Shown here: positions 2,889 to 48,189 of the stretch, in pieces
Numbering within the stretch: the stretch's first letter is position 1
Layout of the letters: each line of letters starts with the position of its first letter
Source of the DNA: a virus
Lineage: Duplodnaviria; Heunggongvirae; Uroviricota; Caudoviricetes
Direction: 5' to 3' (one strand)
IMG/VR virus record: IMGVR_UViG_3300031370_000003
Length of the DNA stretch: 64,000 nt
Position numbers and translations under genes: made by a program
Notes under the pieces: model-generated
Told to the model about the DNA's origin: nothing
The model's database searches: none
Seen by the model: only the letters and a program-made list of their open reading frames with translations

Positions 2889-5800
2889 ATGTCTGACAAC
2901 GTAGAGTTTATTCTGTCGCTGGACGATAAAAAGTTCACCGCGGCAATCGACCGGGCGGGAAAACTGCTGGTCAGTTTTGGCGAGAAGGCCACAAAGCCAG
3001 CGCAAAAAATCGCAACACTTGAGCGTTCTCTGGGTTCCGTTGCCGGGATTCTGGGTACGCTCGACAAAAAGCTGGAATCGGTCGCCAATGGTCTTCAGGA
3101 CTTAGGCGCCGGTTTCGAGCTTGTCTCTAAGGCAATGCGCGACACCAGACAAGAGCTGGTGACGTTTAATGCCAACCTCAAAACCTACACCACATGTATT
3201 GACGCCGCCGACAAAGCCACGAAGGGGTTTCATCATTCCTTGCAGGCTGTTCAGTCAGAGCTGAGCGACTTCTCTGATTGGGCTAATCACGCTGGACGTG
3301 CAGCCTCATCCTTTGGCCATGAGGTCAAAGAGGCTAATACAGCCACCTCCGGTATGAACACTCGTTTGTCCAACTCCAGCAAGCGAATGGAGAATTGGGC
3401 TGCATCGTCCACCAAAGCCGCTGCCCAGATGAAAAAGGTCGTGGCGGAGATGGATGCGCTGATTAACCGCCAAAGAGAATTGGGCAATCTGCGAGCGGAT
3501 GTGCGTGGCCCTGGTCGTGGTGGTTCCGGTGGAAGTTCGAGCGGTTCCGGTGGCGGTTCCGGTCGTGGTGGTCGTCACTCAAGCGGCGGGCTGATGGACG
3601 GCATGAAAGGCAATATCTTCATGCTCGGTGAAATCGGTGATGCAGCTTATACCGTTCAGCAGATGTTGTTTGGTTGGCAGGTGCCGATCGTCGAAGCAGC
3701 AGCCCAGATGCAGAAGATGCGCATCTTGCTTGAAGGCATGAACAAAGAAGCTGCCAACCCGAAGCTGGCTGCGACTAATGACATGAATTACATCGTGAAC
3801 ATGGCTAAAACAGCCCCGTTCGCAATGGAAGCTCTGACAGACGCATTCGTTAAATTCAAATCAGCTGGCATCGATCCCGCCAATGGCTCTCTAAAGTCGC
3901 TGGTTGACTCTGTGGCACGTTTTGGTGGCGATAGTGAGCTGTTGAAGCGAGCAGCTGTGGCAATCCAGCAGATGTCCGGTAAGGGCGTCATTTCGATGGA
4001 AGAGCTGCGTCAGCAATTAGGTGAAGCCGTTCCTACCGCGATGCAGGCAATGGCAGATTCCGCTGGCGTTACCATGGGGCAACTGACCAAGGCGATTTCT
4101 ACCGGTACTGTCTCAGCGAAGCAGGGTTTAGAGCTGTTATTCCAGGGGCTTGATGCTCAAAGCCGTGGTGCAGCCGAAAATCTGATGCAGGCATACAGTG
4201 GGGCGCTGGCGCAACTCCAGACCTCATTCACTCTGTTTGCTGATCGTATTGGTCGTGCCGGCTACCTCGAATCCATCACTAAAGCCTTCAAAGAGCTGTC
4301 CAATTACATGAACAGCACTGACGGTAAGGTGTTTGCGCAGGATCTGGGCGAGGGGTTGTCCACTGCGGTAAATGCGTTGATGGACATGGCGAAGTGGGCG
4401 GAGCGCAACAAAGAGCTGCTTCTCACTCTCGGCCAGGCTGCTTTGGCGTTGATCGGCTTTAAGGTGCTGAAAGGTACTGTGACGGGGCTGGCCACCGCAG
4501 GGACGCAAATGGGTGGTAGCCTCAAAAAAGCCTTTGAGGTCGTAAATGGCGCTGGCGCGAAAACAATCAGTGTAATTGCCGGTGTGGTTAAAACATTCCG
4601 TGATTTCGGCGGTACCGCGGCGATGATCATCTATGTAGGTGAGGCCATTAAGATGGTTCGCACTGCATGGCTGGCATTCCAGGCAGTGATTGTGGCTAAC
4701 CCTGTGGGCGCAGCCATTACAGCGATCGCTGTAGCGGTCGGTGGCTTAATCGCCGTTATGACGTCGCTGCGTGACAAAACTGCCGAAACAGTGGCGGAGA
4801 TTCGTAAGATCCCTGAAGCGATGACAGCCGCCCAGCGATCTCAGATGACCGCTCGTATCAAGCAACTGGAGAGCCAGAACAGCGGCGATCAGCAGACTCT
4901 TGAAGCGATGAAGAGTGGCGGCCTGTCATCCTCAGCAATTGGCGTAGATCAGAAGGCACTTCAGTCGCGGTTAGAAGCAAACCAGAAGGAGTTGGCTCAG
5001 CTTAAAGAGACCGTTGGTATGGGTGATAAAGCCCAATACGAGAACCTGGCGCGCGACATTGTCACCAAACGTCTGGAAGACGTAGACAACGGCATCAAAG
5101 CGGGGATGGCGCAGTACAGCACAACCACTCTCAAGGATGCGCGTAATAAGCGCACGGTGCTTTCGCAAGACCAGAAAATGTCTCCTTCTGAGAAAAGCGC
5201 GCAGCTGGAATCAATCAACGCTTCCGATCGCGATGCTCATCTTAAGCCATTCCTTGAAGGGGCAGACAAAACCCAAAAGATCGTCGATAGCCTTGGGCAA
5301 GAGGTTGTTCGAATTACGAAACTGCTGGAAAACCCGAATCTGAATGACAGCGATCGCTCGCGTCTGCAAGGTCAATTAAATGGCCAATCTCAGGCATTTA
5401 ACACCGCGCAGGAGTCACTCAGCAGCCTCCAGGGGCAAATTAAGAACATCCGTGAGCAATCTGGCAAGGGTTTGCAGATGCTGGATGGCTCTTATTACAC
5501 CGGGGTTGGCGGTACCAAAAAGCAAGATGATCGTCTGAACTCACTGTTTGTTAATTCCCAGCTCGGTACTGGCAAACAAACTCGAATGAATCCAGACGGC
5601 ACAATCATGCGTGATATTGCCGGTGATGCTGTGATGGGTGATGCCCAGCTGAAGGCCAACACTAAGCTGCGTTCCATCTACGGCGAAACCATCAAGATGG
5701 AGCAGCTGACCGCAGATCAGCGCGAGAAGATCTCTTCCATCCTGACCGCAGCAAAGCTGAAGGATGAGCAAAAAGCGCAGCGCGCAGCTGAGCGAGCGGG

Positions 5801-36622: not shown

Positions 36623-36714
36623 AGATGATAGGTAGTGACCTACCAAATATTATTAGCTATTCTTGTCCCGATTTTATTAGGCAATGGACGCCTACACTAA
36701 CGAAGGGAATCAAC

Positions 36715-37173
36715 ATGACAGATGCGGAACTGGAACAGCAGTTAATCGAAAAGGGGCTAACCGCCCCGCGGGTTACTCTTGAGCACATCGAAAGCCTGAT
36801 TGCAGAAGAGCACTATTTCTCAGCTTACGACGGCATCCGAGCTGCAAACCAGGGCGTTGATGCAGCTTGGTGGGCGAACACGGCCGCCGACCGTCACACA
36901 TTTTGCTATCTGCTACTGACCAATGGTTACACTGTCACGGGTGAAAATGCGTGTGTGAGCAAAGAGAACTTCGATCCCGAGCTGAGCCGCCAGCTGGCGC
37001 GCCGCAACGCTATCGCAAAAATCTGGCCTCTTGAGGGCTACCTTTTAAAACAAACATTGAGTGATGAACAGAATGGTAAAAGTGAAAATATATGGCAAAG
37101 AACAGTGCGCCTACTGCAAAAACGCAAAGGAGCTGGCCGAACAGCTGCAGAGCCAGGGCAAGCTGACGTTTGA
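36715..37173 (+). CDS. hypothetical protein (possibly phage gp49/gp66-like family)
   Basis: Start ATG 36715 with RBS GAAGGGA; weak resemblance from memory to the N4 gp49 / Sf6 gp66 family; 3' end overlaps the next gene by ~110 nt. Confidence 0.35.
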   Translation: MTDAELEQQLIEKGLTAPRVTLEHIESLIAEEHYFSAYDGIRAANQGVDAAWWANTAADRHTFCYLLLTNGYTVTGENACVSKENFDPELSRQLARRNAIAKIWPLEGYLLKQTLSDEQNGKSENIWQRTVRLLQKRKGAGRTAAEPGQADV

Positions 37174-44158: not shown

Positions 44159-44358
44159 GCAAAGGCTGCTTTGGCTCACTGATAGCAGCCTCTGAAACTA
44201 ATCCCGTTTGCATGGCATGTTCCAGCAAGCGGGATTGCTTCGTTAAGGCACAAGAGACCGCTATCAAGATTTACGGGAAGTTCGCTGGCTTCCCAAACGA
44301 CAAAATAAAAAAGACAAGTAAGGCAAAAGCACATGAAAGCATTAATGGTACGAACTGA
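44155..44358 (+). CDS. small Cys-rich protein
   Basis: 67 aa with C-x...C-x2-C...C spacing; ATGA overlap with the previous gene. Confidence 0.3.
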   Translation: MSKGCFGSLIAASETNPVCMACSSKRDCFVKAQETAIKIYGKFAGFPNDKIKKTSKAKAHESINGTN

Positions 44359-46690
44359 CTTCTCCCTGGGTGAGTCGTCTTTGAAGGCAGAGCGCGCCGT
44401 AGAGAAAGCCCGCGAAATGGGTTACTCGTCGGTGATCTCCGCTGACAGCATGAATCTGGCATCCGTAATCCCTTTGCAGATGGCGGCTGGTGACGATGTT
44501 GCGGTCATTTGTGGTGTGAAGCTGAACCTGGTTGACGATCCTACATACGAGCACCGTGCTCGACTCGCTAAGGAGTCTAAAGGATGTATGGAATCATTAA
44601 CGCGCGCGCGCAGCTACAGCTTCACGGCGCTCATTAAGAACGAGCAAGGTTATGTCGATCTCTGCGAACTGATGACGCTGGCAAACACACGCGAGCAGTT
44701 TTATCACGTTCCCCGTCTTGAGCTGGCGCAACTGCTGGCGACGTTCGCCAAAGGCAACATCATCCTGCTGACCTCGGACATGGGAAGCGTATTCCAGCGC
44801 CCGGACTTCGCGAAGATTATCGCCCAGCTGGTTCACGCTGGCGGCCGTGAGAACTTTTACTGCGCCGTTTATCCGATTGCTACCCCACTCTATGACCAGC
44901 TGAATAGCAAAGCGCTCAAGGTGGCCAGTGCTCTTAAGATCGAGCCGGTGGCGTTCTACCCTGCTTACTACGAGGCTCCCACTGACGCTGACATCAAAGA
45001 CATCGCGCATATGGTGCTGAACAACATCAAAATCGACCAGCTGCACCGTATGCGAATCCCGTATCAACGTGACAATGGCGTTAATGATCGCCGCCACTTA
45101 CTCCAGCTATTGAAGGAGTTTGCGGTGCGGATGGGTGTCAACGTCACGCCAGCAATGGTCTCAACAACTCAGGACGCGATCATTGATGCGTGTACATGGC
45201 GCTGGCACCCGCTGGAACCCGCTTTACCAACCATGGCAGATGATGAGCCAGCCACATTGCGTAAACTCGCTGTAGAGGGGCTGAGGAAGCGTCTTAGCAC
45301 CAAAGAGTTCGGCTATGCACCACCAGCCACAATGCACCGTGATTATGTTGAGCGCCTGAAGTACGAACTTGATGTTTTAACCCGCCTTGGCTTCTGCGGC
45401 TACTTCCTCATGGTTCACGACTTGATGAATTACGCTCGCCGCGCCGGGATTCCTGTTGGGCCTGGCCGTGGTTCATCCGCTGGCTCTCTTGTCGCCTGGT
45501 GCGTGGGGATCACAAACGTAGACCCTATTCGCCATGGATTGCTGTTCGAACGTTTCATTAACCCTGAACGTCTCGACTTGCCCGATGCTGATCTGGACTT
45601 TAGCCAGGCACGTCGCCACGAGGTCATTGAATACCTGGGTGAGCGTTACGGGGAGGATTACGTCGCTGGCATTCCCAACTTCACATACCTCGGTGCGGCT
45701 TCAGCACTGCGCGACACCGCACGTATCTTTGGCGTGGATTCAGCTGATATGGCGGTATCGAAAGACCTGCGCTTTGTCGATGACGATTCATTGTCACTCG
45801 AAGAGATGCGCGAAGAGCTTTCCAGCCTGGACAAATACGCAGCCAAATACCCGGACGCTTTTAATGCGGCCACCAAACTGCAAAGCCTCATGCGCGGATT
45901 CGGCCGTCACGCAGCTGGCATGATCGTAGCCGGTGTGAAACTGACAGAGCGCACACCGGTCGAGCGACGCGGGGATGCGCGTGTAATCGCTTTTGACAAG
46001 CGTTACTGCGAATCCATGGGATTGATTAAGTTGGACGTGCTCGGCCTTGCTACGCTCGATCTGCTGGCTTATGCGCAGCAATACGTGAAAGAAGCCACGG
46101 GCAGCGTGATTGATCTCGATGCAATTCCACTAACTGACAAAAAGGTTCTTGATGGCTTTGCCGGTGGCCACACCCAAGGCGTGTTCCAGCTTGAATCAGG
46201 TTCGATGCGTAAGCTGCTGAAGGATCTGGGCGGCGGCATTGATCCGATGAGCTTTGAAACAGTTGTCGCCACGACAGCATTATTCCGACCTGGCCCGATC
46301 GAATCTGGAATGTTGGACAGCTACGTTTCGGTGGCCAAAGGCTTCAAAGAGGCTGATTCCATCCACCAGGTGCTCGATGAGCTGACCTCTGAAACCAATG
46401 GGGTAATTCTCTATCAGGAACAAACCATGAAAGCCACGCAGCTGCTGGCCGGCTTCACGCTCGCGGAAGCTGATGGCGTCCGTAAAGCGATCGGTAAAAA
46501 AGACATGGAGAAGATGAAGAAGGTCGGTAGCCAGTTCATTGAGCAAGCCCAGGCTGGCTGGATAGAGGTGAAGCTGGAAGACGGAAGCACTCGCCAGTTC
46601 CACCGCGCGGAGCACTTCAAATGTGCCGATGGCAAGCAGCGAACCATCGAAGAAGCAATGCACGATGGCGCCGACGTTCTGGGCATCTAA
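44333..46690 (+). CDS. DNA polymerase III alpha subunit, N-terminal part (PHP domain, palm, fingers)
   Basis: Hallmark motif GRGSSAGSLVAWCVGITNVDPI; PHP-like N-terminus; ends just upstream of the conserved FNKSH region. Confidence 0.85.
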   Translation: MKALMVRTDFSLGESSLKAERAVEKAREMGYSSVISADSMNLASVIPLQMAAGDDVAVICGVKLNLVDDPTYEHRARLAKESKGCMESLTRARSYSFTALIKNEQGYVDLCELMTLANTREQFYHVPRLELAQLLATFAKGNIILLTSDMGSVFQRPDFAKIIAQLVHAGGRENFYCAVYPIATPLYDQLNSKALKVASALKIEPVAFYPAYYEAPTDADIKDIAHMVLNNIKIDQLHRMRIPYQRDNGVNDRRHLLQLLKEFAVRMGVNVTPAMVSTTQDAIIDACTWRWHPLEPALPTMADDEPATLRKLAVEGLRKRLSTKEFGYAPPATMHRDYVERLKYELDVLTRLGFCGYFLMVHDLMNYARRAGIPVGPGRGSSAGSLVAWCVGITNVDPIRHGLLFERFINPERLDLPDADLDFSQARRHEVIEYLGERYGEDYVAGIPNFTYLGAASALRDTARIFGVDSADMAVSKDLRFVDDDSLSLEEMREELSSLDKYAAKYPDAFNAATKLQSLMRGFGRHAAGMIVAGVKLTERTPVERRGDARVIAFDKRYCESMGLIKLDVLGLATLDLLAYAQQYVKEATGSVIDLDAIPLTDKKVLDGFAGGHTQGVFQLESGSMRKLLKDLGGGIDPMSFETVVATTALFRPGPIESGMLDSYVSVAKGFKEADSIHQVLDELTSETNGVILYQEQTMKATQLLAGFTLAEADGVRKAIGKKDMEKMKKVGSQFIEQAQAGWIEVKLEDGSTRQFHRAEHFKCADGKQRTIEEAMHDGADVLGI

Positions 46691-46762
46691 CCGTTTAACG
46701 CAGCTTGGATGCCGTGTCCGAGCTGCGAAAATTAATACATGGATTGTGATTAAGAGGCACCA

Positions 46763-47932
46763 ATGAAAATTTTAGAGACGATCTCCACGAAGCCCGGACT
46801 AAGTGATAGTAAAGCAAAAGAGATCTGGGAAGCGTTTGAGAAAAACGGGGCGTACCAGTTCAACAAATCTCACTCAGTGGCGTACTCGCTGATTAGCTAT
46901 CAGTCGATGTTCATGAAGACGCACTACCCTGCCCAATTCTTCGCAGCAGCGCTGACTATTTTGGGTGATGACAAGCATCAGGGGCTGGTCAAAGACGCGC
47001 TGAGCTTTGGCATTCGCATCTTGCCACCAGATGTAAACATCTCGACCAACCGCATTGAGATCCGTCAGATGGAAGATGGTACGCAAGTGCTGTATGCGCC
47101 CTTCTCAGCTGTTAAAGGATGCTCAGAGAATGGATGCCAGGCGATCATGCGCGCCCGGGCGAAAGTGGGAGGTCATTTCACCGACATCATGCAGTTTGAA
47201 GAGGCGGTTGAGAAGCGCGCCTGCAACAGCCGTGTACGTGACTCTCTCGATCGTGTCGGCGCATTTGCCAGCATCATTCCCGGCAGCGTACCAGCTACCT
47301 CAGAAGAACGTCGCCGCGACCAGGCGGAGCTGATGGGTAATCTGGTGATCGATGCGGTAAAAGCAACACGCCAGTTTGAAATGAACCCGAAACGCCAGGC
47401 TGAAGTAAACGTGCTGATGACCAATATGGCCGCTGAAATGGGGCTGGGTGATGAGCTTATTCGTCCGAGCATCGGCATCAAGCCGCGTCTGATGATCATC
47501 CTCGACAACGCCAACGGTAACGATGGCAAAACCGGTTACTTCATGGAGAACGGTTACGACGACTTCAAGACTAAGTTGCTGGTTGCCGGTGATCTGAAGA
47601 TGGGCGATCTGTACGTGACCGGCGTCTGCAAGAAGGTGAAGGATAAGGAAAAGGACTACACCAAAGACGAGTTAGGCCAGTTTAACGAGTTCATCAAAGC
47701 AGAGGTGGCTCTGGTGCGACCAACGTACATCCTTACGTGCGGTGCTAAGTCCACCAGCCTGTTTAACAACAAATCAAAGCCATCGGATCTTGTTGGCCGC
47801 AAAGAGTATCTGCCGGAGCTGGATGTCACGGTCTTTTATGGCTTCAACCCTAACATCCTCCACTTCCGCCCGGAAGAAGGTGAAAAGTTGGAGCTAATCC
47901 TCGCTGACGTTGCCGAGGCAGTTAATTCGTGA
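46763..47932 (+). CDS. DNA polymerase III alpha subunit, C-terminal part (separate ORF)
   Basis: Begins just before the conserved FNKSHSVAYSLISYQSMFMKTHYPAQFFAAAL segment; own RBS AAGAGG 5 nt before ATG; same reading frame as the N-terminal part. Confidence 0.8.
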   Translation: MKILETISTKPGLSDSKAKEIWEAFEKNGAYQFNKSHSVAYSLISYQSMFMKTHYPAQFFAAALTILGDDKHQGLVKDALSFGIRILPPDVNISTNRIEIRQMEDGTQVLYAPFSAVKGCSENGCQAIMRARAKVGGHFTDIMQFEEAVEKRACNSRVRDSLDRVGAFASIIPGSVPATSEERRRDQAELMGNLVIDAVKATRQFEMNPKRQAEVNVLMTNMAAEMGLGDELIRPSIGIKPRLMIILDNANGNDGKTGYFMENGYDDFKTKLLVAGDLKMGDLYVTGVCKKVKDKEKDYTKDELGQFNEFIKAEVALVRPTYILTCGAKSTSLFNNKSKPSDLVGRKEYLPELDVTVFYGFNPNILHFRPEEGEKLELILADVAEAVNS

Positions 47933-48189
47933 GCAAGCCTCACATCCTCTATAGGGCAGACTTGCGCTGCCCTAACTGCAAATCAGCCCCTGAAGTCATT
48001 CGAATGACCGATGAAAATGCCGAGCAATTTTGGTGGGAAGAGGACGGCACGACATATCCCGTGTTATTGCGCCATACAGAGCTGGCAGCACGTCATTGCC
48101 CATTCAGGACTGAGATCTACCACCTGACTCTCCCGCTGGCTATTGGCGTTTGGAAAGAAGAAATTAAAAACAGGAAGCAACGAAAATGA
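47929..48189 (+). CDS. small hypothetical protein
   Basis: 86-aa ORF, GTGA overlap with the polymerase gene. Confidence 0.3.
   Translation: MSKPHILYRADLRCPNCKSAPEVIRMTDENAEQFWWEEDGTTYPVLLRHTELAARHCPFRTEIYHLTLPLAIGVWKEEIKNRKQRK

Follow-up and report, generated by a model that had tools for sequence, protein, structure and literature searches.

In cyanobacteria the halves of DnaE, the alpha subunit of DNA polymerase III (Pol III), are encoded at distant loci and covalently joined by trans-splicing, at a junction that, by an alignment, we place at Y754/G755 in E. coli numbering (slashes mark junctions throughout). Phage T4 topoisomerase 39/60, with mobA, is a phage replication enzyme split at a homing-endonuclease site, and in T4 gene 60 a 50-nt gap linked to a homing endonuclease cassette is bypassed. 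Dassa, London, Stoddard and Pietrokovski (2009, NAR 37:2560; PMC2677866) described 'fractured genes', including three dnaE loci, in which adjacent same-strand phage-type replication genes carry split-intein parts at the break and have a free-standing endonuclease gene between them. In the nrdA-a/mobE/nrdA-b locus of Aeromonas phage Aeh1, the two pieces of NrdA are separate translation products that come together with no splicing of either RNA or protein (Crona et al. 2011, PMC3045599); their oppositely charged C- and N-terminal tails arrived with the insertion and are essential for activity, and Crona et al., who also mention tails in gp39/gp60, speculated that such tails are possible degenerate intein remnants (PMC3045599). 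Here we describe a split dnaE in a 64,000-nt stretch of tailed-phage DNA (Caudoviricetes; IMG/VR record IMGVR_UViG_3300031370_000003), hereafter the window. The gene is encoded as two conserved pieces, and we argue that it is probably a fractured dnaE derived from an intein-relic cassette, now without its endonuclease, whose halves assemble non-covalently.

In the mechanism we propose, two adjacent cistrons would give the Pol III alpha subunit of a phage-plasmid as separate chains of 785 and 389 aa; each cistron has its own stop or start codon, and the second also has its own ribosome binding site (RBS; Table 1). The break lies inside an insertion of ~55 aa, with the N-half retaining the last ~43 residues of an N-terminal split-intein fragment (IntN) and the C-half carrying a ~12-residue head that putatively represents the first strand of the C-terminal fragment (IntC). 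Relatives have a free-standing HNH endonuclease gene, from one of two families, in the gap; the window keeps only the 72-nt spacer and its hairpin. The two polypeptides would reassemble non-covalently into an active polymerase, for which an extensive native interface should be available because the break falls in a loop between two fingers helices, and the acidic N-tail and mildly basic C-head would form a small shared beta-sheet that helps to dock the halves, much as the tails of Aeh1 NrdA aid its assembly; these segments correspond to the portion of a split intein that touches first in the capture-and-collapse pathway.

A reading of the window made from its letters alone (the sequence-only reading) had described two same-frame ORFs separated by a 72-nt spacer with three TAA codons. 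We confirm its coordinates and its in-frame translation of the spacer, PFNAAWMPCPSCEN-TAA-YMDCD-TAA-EAP: both ORFs have start coordinates equal to 2 mod 3, and the further in-frame TAA codons lie at 46733-46735 and 46751-46753. The RBS that it assigned to the second half is likewise present, and it correctly set the break just before the conserved FNKSH motif: the break is ~20 residues upstream of it, in a fingers-domain loop, at the position of G735/I736 in the E. coli alpha subunit (whose FNKSH spans 756-760). The two halves are colinear end to end with the single 1172-aa DnaE of two unsplit relatives (L003, L004). The 'extra residues' that this reading saw at the break do belong to a real insertion, but only ~81 nt are extra when the window is compared with its closest unsplit relatives, in which most of the 43-aa tail and 12-aa head are also present.

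Table 1. Features of the split dnaE locus (positions in the window)
Feature	Coordinates	Strand	Description
dnaE N-half (ORF1)	44333..46690	+	785 aa; stop TAA 46688-46690; from the ORF list
Content of ORF1			PHP, palm and N-terminal part of fingers; catalytic motifs LPDADLDF and KLDVLGL
Putative intein-relic N-tail, W743-I785	46559..46687	+	43 aa; corresponds to about the last 40 residues of a DnaE-type IntN; without block A and Cys1
N-half TAA stop	46688..46690	+	Apparently coincides with the canonical intein split site/endonuclease insertion point
Spacer	46691..46762	+	72 nt; site of the endonuclease gene in relatives, empty in the window
Conserved hairpin	46699..46727	+	12-bp stem and 5-nt loop; RNA fold
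RBS of C-half	46752..46757	+	AAGAGG, 5 nt upstream of the ATG
dnaE C-half (ORF2)	46763..47932	+	389 aa; remaining fingers (FNKSH), HhH/beta-binding region, family-4 UDG-like C-terminal domain
C-head	46763..46798	+	MKILETISTKPG, 12 aa; proposed remnant of the first IntC strand; without blocks F and G and terminal Asn

The split is not peculiar to this stretch. The region is part of the backbone of an SSU5/pHCM2/pMT1-like phage-plasmid, with 399 related plasmids in PLSDB, and the same two ORFs and spacer are found in complete plasmids of Cronobacter sp. JZ38 (97.0% nucleotide identity) and Enterobacter sp. CP102 (95.4%), which come from different genera and different countries and each have their own spacer substitutions; in CP102 the third spacer TAA has become TTA, leaving two in-frame TAA codons in this allele (L002). 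Within PLSDB the window's spacer occurs only in these two close relatives, so that it is not a repeated or mobile element. Two protein clusters contain the same C-half at 98-99% identity (P0001, with 43 members on 5 contigs, and P0002), and a more distant relative, L165, whose C-half is carried by 18 contigs, has a homologous spacer of 73 nt at 85% amino acid identity. All other related plasmids, from Klebsiella, Yersinia (pMT1), Salmonella (pHCM2) and E. coli, have one 1172-aa ORF that is 81 nt shorter at this point.

The evidence for an intein origin of the break comes from profiles of the inserted residues, both parts of which (W743-I785 and M1-G12) are missing in relatives that lack the insertion. 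Profile A2, made from ten sequences of tail plus head with the polymerase flank excluded and compared with all PDB sequences, gave DnaE split inteins as all of its best 14 hits: Ssp entries 1ZD7, 1ZDE, 3NZM, 4GIG and 5OL5 at E ~6e-5, Npu entries 2KEQ, 4KL5 and 4QFQ at E ~4e-4, and in all 13 hits at E<=1.2e-3 and one at 0.07, beyond which there is only noise at E>0.3. A second profile, of 16 tails alone (A5), ranked the same 13 entries at the top, at E 1.5e-5 to 1.8e-4. To judge from these profiles, the N-tail shares homology with inteins. The part of the intein that aligns is internal (40 residues in Ssp), covering IntN residues ~56-103, and it stops at the IntN C-terminus (residues 96-102 of 102 in Npu IntN at the end of the profile alignment), so that the N-half stop codon and the endonuclease genes of relatives would sit at the canonical split and insertion point of the Hint fold. 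Since the relic profile scores 25.6 bits on Npu IntN, as against 1-2 bits on genuine inteins from elsewhere in this phage DnaE family, the relic appears to resemble the cyanobacterial-type intein lineage specifically. The sequence-only reading judged the tails too short for a split intein, which is correct for a working intein; the N-tail nonetheless appears to be intein-derived.

Relatives show what has happened at this site. Among viral contigs with the same architecture (DnaE with a C-terminus like that of uracil-DNA glycosylase, UDG), four allele states can be read: (a) unsplit and insert-free, with the E. coli-like sequence ...G-[MV]DE..A..LFDKIE.FAGYGFNKSH; (b) unsplit with the ~55-aa insertion (L003, L004, L087, L088, P0005, P0055); (c) split, with the insertion and a short spacer (72 nt in the window, L001 and L002, 73 nt in L165, ~90 nt in L086, and ~300 nt with a small ORF in L095); and (d) split, with the insertion and a free-standing gene separating the halves. 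The ~300-nt gap of L095 contains a 56-aa ORF at 4815-4985 (MNTDTFTNKLNRRSEAVIQEEARLANQL...) and no endonuclease, and is preceded by a terminator-like hairpin.

The split itself is widespread. A search with the C-half found many proteins of 385-421 aa that start at the same residue, at identities from 99% down to 33% and including an Acinetobacter baumannii cluster, and the head motif M-K-[IV]-x-x-[IV]-x-x-L-x-D-G is kept in 45 split C-halves down to ~33% identity. Split and unsplit forms were counted in a search of 50%-identity representatives, the other homologue search favouring proteins of query length: 106 representative clusters were found at E<1e-30, comprising by eye ~40 C-halves (~380-420 aa) and ~45 unsplit proteins (~1080-1140 aa). 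Classed roughly by motif, ~160 sequences include 66 split forms (an endonuclease accompanies 4), 86 that are unsplit and insert-free, and 6 that are fused; some of the 66 split calls are perhaps truncated ORFs, and 45 have the canonical head. A contig scan with the C-half alignment found chromosomal dnaE genes only, through the FNKSH motif.

In state (d) the gene between the halves is a homing endonuclease. Pfam matches place HNH ORFs exactly between the halves in L085, L089, L100, L112, L168 and L173, in gaps of 700-800 nt in some relatives that hold a whole endonuclease ORF; the domains are HNH_3 with NUMOD3 in L085, L089 and L100 and NUMOD4 with HNH_3 in L112 and L168, and the two groups are mutually unrelated by BLASTP. 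Alleles with and without an endonuclease are close relatives of one another. In the polymerase core, L085 and L168 share 79-83% identity with the window; the cassette-bearing L089 shares 62-70% with the cassette-free L090 and only 38-42% with other cassette carriers; L112 (cassette) and L113 (none) share 67-75%, and L100 (cassette) and L097 (none) 65% in the C-core only; and L085 (NUMOD3-HNH), L168 (NUMOD4-HNH) and the fused L003 are mutually 89-96% identical. Turnover at the insertion site appears to be fast. A rough neighbour-joining tree interleaves split and insert-free alleles across the family, a pattern that fits horizontal spread by homing, repeated loss, or both, and because of this patchy distribution among closely related dnaE alleles, the unit of tail, stop, endonuclease, start and head seems to behave as a mobile cassette.

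Within the enterobacterial clade nearly all alleles are split. The fused forms are best read, from their sequences, as secondary in-frame fusions, because they are nested in this clade at three places, each with a different junction sequence, and because the L003 junction (...VKLP-M-AAVRVTGSQPG; compare MKVVRVVSDKPG in P0003) retains what would be the former initiator Met. The window has no endonuclease between its pieces, in contrast to the same site in relatives, and its allele would be an endonuclease-less derivative. The 'degraded insertion' that the sequence-only reading listed among its explanations was half right, in that a remnant of a split-intein/endonuclease cassette does appear to stand at the site. 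Two other rearrangements were seen in the family. In P0019 the N-terminus of a NUMOD4/HNH_3 endonuclease runs on in frame into the final ~230 aa of a relative's DnaE C-half, a fusion that hints at a further site of endonuclease insertion; in P0024 a C-half is fused to a gp32-like single-stranded DNA-binding protein, with deletion the probable cause.

How the relic might act can be considered from its charge and predicted fold. N-tails have a net charge of -1 to -5 in 12 of 13 sequences and heads a mean of +0.9 (n=45), the same polarity as that of IntN and IntC in the capture-and-collapse model (PMC11766414). In an AlphaFold2 (AF2) model of 590 aa, made from the last 201 residues of the window's N-half joined to the C-half, the relic is predicted with pLDDT 74-92 and has three strands (159-164, 169-173, 178-180) and one helix (188-194), with the head as an 8-residue strand (204-211); Foldseek matches of the whole model are dominated by Pol III alpha and UDG. 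By the model and by analogy, the relic may be a docking module for a two-chain polymerase.

The most serious competing view is that the relic is passive: the halves would join through their native fingers interface, with tail and head adding nothing specific. Several observations speak for it. The fused relatives of state (b) hold the relic within one polypeptide, and because they keep it, it may be an insertion that is just tolerated or built into the structure and has no part in docking. In Aeh1, the NrdA tails are not needed for formation of the a/b heterodimer (PMC3045599), and the charge complementarity of the heads described above is modest. Against this view, the head motif and tail positions D8, G9, H15, T29 and G55 are conserved in lineages only ~33% identical elsewhere, every split lineage seen has retained rather than deleted the relic, and AF2 folds tail and head together confidently. 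A passive relic thus seems doubtful to us, though it deserves real weight, and a fractured gene whose halves assemble with the help of its intein relic is the reading we prefer. Going beyond this reading, we tentatively propose that a domesticated non-splicing split intein, of which the capture part (the C-terminal portion of IntN plus the first IntC strand) is kept, may serve as the docking module, and that it may travel with HNH endonucleases as a self-neutralising gene-fracturing cassette that has repeatedly invaded, decayed and been re-fused in the dnaE genes of phages and phage-plasmids.

Other points count against a fractured gene of intein-relic origin. The window relic alone finds no intein match in PDB by phmmer, only profiles do so, and Pfam intein models match no single relic sequence by hmmscan. 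The likeness of the head to the first IntC strand was seen by eye, without statistical support, in a comparison of the L095 head (MAKIVSSRVLENG) with the first IntC strand of Npu, MIKIATRKYLGKQ. The sequence-only reading had pointed to the cyanobacterial intein site as nearby; this was a good lead, in that the relic seems to belong to that lineage, but the relic lies ~20 residues upstream of that site. A search among longer C- and N-halves, and a scan for relatives of the endonuclease, found no complete, competent split intein at the exact site. Finally, the tree is of the rough neighbour-joining kind only, and it is from the tree that we infer that the endonuclease was lost in the window's lineage rather than never present, because at the nucleotide level the window spacer resembles none of the sequences that flank the gap in L085, L086, L089, L095, L100 or L112 and shows no deletion footprint; no homologue of the relatives' endonucleases was found anywhere in the window.

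A recent pseudogene, with the plasmid depending on the host polymerase and both ORFs decaying, is very unlikely. In PLSDB the corresponding region of L001 and L002 carries no CDS, as a pseudogene might lead one to expect; since the PLSDB table omits pseudogenes, this is consistent with either a pseudogene flag or an unannotated region in the RefSeq source. The sequences themselves argue otherwise. Among the window, L001 and L002, the N-half shows a dN/dS of 0.02-0.07 and the C-half one of 0.01-0.03, with dS values of 0.07-0.29, none of the three alleles has an additional stop or frameshift, and the RBS and ATG of the C-half are conserved. The loss of catalytic residues, which the sequence-only reading had named as a sign of a pseudogene, has not occurred: the palm motifs LPDADLDF and KLDVLGL are undamaged. 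Given these motifs and the low dN/dS, both halves have been under strong purifying selection since the split, which is moreover maintained in dozens of divergent lineages. The naturally two-subunit polymerase that the same reading put forward, together with its call to look for the split in related phage-plasmids, is thus borne out by the conservation of the split in JZ38, CP102 and beyond and by the constraint on both halves.

Production of a single polypeptide, whether by stop-codon readthrough, also among the earlier suggestions, or by ribosomal bypassing as in T4 gene 60, is scarcely credible. In its favour, the halves are in the same frame in the window and a stable hairpin begins 8 nt after the stop. 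There are, however, three in-frame TAA codons to pass (two in L002), the halves are in different frames in L165, despite its homologous spacer, and in L085, L086, L089 and L095, and a complete endonuclease ORF fills the gap of some relatives. Because frames differ in these five relatives, the same-frame arrangement of the window would be a coincidence of its lineage. For bypassing there is also no conserved match of take-off and landing codons: the window has ATC then ATT, the codon in question is GTT in L001 and L002, and L165 has CTC at its end. The C-half probably initiates independently, because its M-K start is universal and its RBS is conserved, with an AGAGG core identical in the window, L001, L002 and L165.

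The hairpin is conserved in its own right. The window, L001, L002 and the more distant L165 have an identical 5' arm and, for the most part, an identical loop, while neighbouring codons diverge, and changes in the 3' arm preserve pairing (G-C to G-U, U-G to U-A) with one exception, the outermost pair, which no longer forms in L165; among these four alleles no pair has changed on both sides. The spacers of the three close alleles differ at 2-3 of 75 positions, small counts that are nevertheless well below flanking dS for two of the three allele pairs. The spacer has no Rfam match and no T-run, and a scan called no sigma-70-like promoter or intrinsic terminator in it; the spacers of L086 and L095 also start with hairpins, of unrelated sequence, as read from the raw sequence. 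The hairpin might act in the processing or stability of the mRNA, or be left over from endonuclease regulation, for which the structure that represses mobE translation (PMC3045599) offers a model. The 16-nt hairpin core (GCAGCTTGGATGCCGT) reappears, with a single mismatch, at 36832-36847 on the minus strand, within the plus-strand ORF 36625-37173 (Pfam Phage_gp49_66), followed by a similar AGCTG...GAAA; the local alignment scores 33, against 26 for the next best in the window, and could be chance or a sequence tied to the origin of the spacer.

Equally hard to credit is a minimal, non-canonical split intein that still trans-splices the halves, even though the relic is homologous to IntN and real split inteins occur at other sites of this family. 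The insertion lacks some 60 residues from the N-terminus of IntN and opens with W, Y, F, M, Q or V, never with Cys, Ser or Ala; its last residue is an invariant Gly rather than Asn, Gln or Asp; and the +1 residue is L, M, I or V rather than Cys, Ser or Thr. A Hint fold is expected to have at least 125-130 aa, and the insertion has ~55, with blocks A, F and G absent and a head of only 12-13 aa. Fused relatives, in addition, hold the relic within one ORF of matching length. With no Cys1, no blocks F and G, no terminal Asn and no +1 nucleophile left, protein splicing should be impossible at the window's dnaE. Genuine inteins, full or mini, do occur elsewhere in the family (RK/C...HN/CMGKK, FNR/C...N/SH, GVHA/C), whose dnaE gene is an intein and endonuclease hotspot. 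The intein carriers P0090, P0186, P0172, P0158 and P0142 represent at least three other sites: before MGKK, with a LAGLIDADG domain; inside FNR/SH, with an HNH domain in some cases but not in others; and at GVHA/C in the palm. Some relatives (P0209, P0210, P0213, P0214) have a three-piece dnaE, whose middle cistron of ~200 aa begins from a complete IntC (...IANGIVVHN/S or C-GMRKLL) at an upstream site, FQLES/SGM, and has the non-splicing relic tail as its C-terminus; in such a gene one junction would be spliced and one unspliced.

A sequencing or assembly error in a continuous gene, also raised earlier, can be discounted almost entirely, since independent assemblies (the two complete plasmids with their own spacer substitutions, besides the P0001 and P0002 clusters and the contigs with the C-half of L165) share the split and spacer, and since uninterrupted 1172-aa relatives do exist but differ from the window by an 81-nt block rather than a point error.

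Apart from its split, the polymerase is of the C-family DnaE type, with PHP, a palm with catalytic aspartates, fingers and HhH; Pfam matches are PHP, DNA_pol3_alpha and DNA_pol3_finger in ORF1 and HHH_6 in ORF2, and the window DnaE matches 2HNH, 2HPI and 5FKV in PDB by sequence and fold. Foldseek matches of the C-half are to Pol III alpha and family-4 UDG. In place of the OB fold and tau-binding domain, the C-terminal ~165 aa (47435-47929, C-half residues ~225-389) match family-4 UDG folds, with Foldseek TM ~0.75 (target-normalised) to the Thermus, Thermotoga and Sulfolobus enzymes; PF03167 is annotated on distant homologues, and relatives bear the database name 'uracil-DNA glycosylase'. By our reading the window has LDNANG in place of the UDG motif GE[AG]PG and FNPNIL in place of HPS, and because these usual motifs are replaced, the domain may be non-catalytic. 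Downstream, an 86-aa ORF at 47929-48189 overlaps the C-half stop by 4 nt, with its GTG start within ...GTGA, and has a CxxC motif; its counterpart in relatives is a hypothetical protein of 120-147 aa (PF24886/DUF7740 in L165 and L168), so a longer ORF may be interrupted or started differently in the window.

Taken together, the evidence favours a working two-piece polymerase in the widespread SSU5/pHCM2/pMT1-like phage-plasmids and related phages. There are consequences for the annotation of hundreds of phage-plasmids, as pipelines probably treat this dnaE as broken; two RefSeq-derived plasmid records show no CDS for it. The locus also lends sequence-level support to the idea of Crona et al. 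that assembly tails of endonuclease-fractured genes can be degenerate split inteins. One site shows insert-free, endonuclease-bearing, endonuclease-less and re-fused alleles, with competent inteins elsewhere in the family, and the intein/homing-endonuclease life cycle and the survival of a fragmented essential enzyme thereby become directly testable. If the ~43- and 12-residue pair does act in non-splicing association, it would be a possible protein-engineering tool. The searchable literature holds no description of this split in SSU5-type phage-plasmids, nor of 'intein relic' tails, which is not proof of novelty.

Among known systems, cyanobacterial split DnaE (Ssp, Npu) concerns the same host protein, has the intein lineage to which the relic is closest, and breaks likewise at the IntN end; here, in contrast, the halves are adjacent rather than distant, the break is at G735/I736, and the intein is truncated at both ends, making splicing impossible as far as its residues tell. 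T4 39/60 resembles the window in its short untranslated gap with a hairpin after the stop codon. Unlike T4 gene 60, the window's C-half comes with a conserved RBS and ATG of its own, and relatives differ in the length and frame of the gap. The layout of the fractured genes of Dassa et al. is seen in L085, L168, L089, L100 and L112, but their catalytic residues are complete and trans-splicing is expected, whereas here there is a ~55-aa relic without splice-junction residues; their endonucleases are GIY-YIG or Vsr-like, those of the window's relatives are HNH, and the window has none (PMC2677866). Like Aeh1 NrdA, the window's dnaE encodes an essential replication-related enzyme probably split by insertion of an HNH-type endonuclease, with tails at the break. 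Unlike Aeh1, the host gene is Pol III alpha, the arrangement is old and occurs widely instead of in a single phage, the intein homology of the N-tail has statistical support where it was speculation there (PMC3045599), and the role of the tails is drawn from sequence and a model. By analogy, then, the arrangement would work like the split ribonucleotide reductase of Aeh1 and would descend from something like the fractured genes of Dassa et al.

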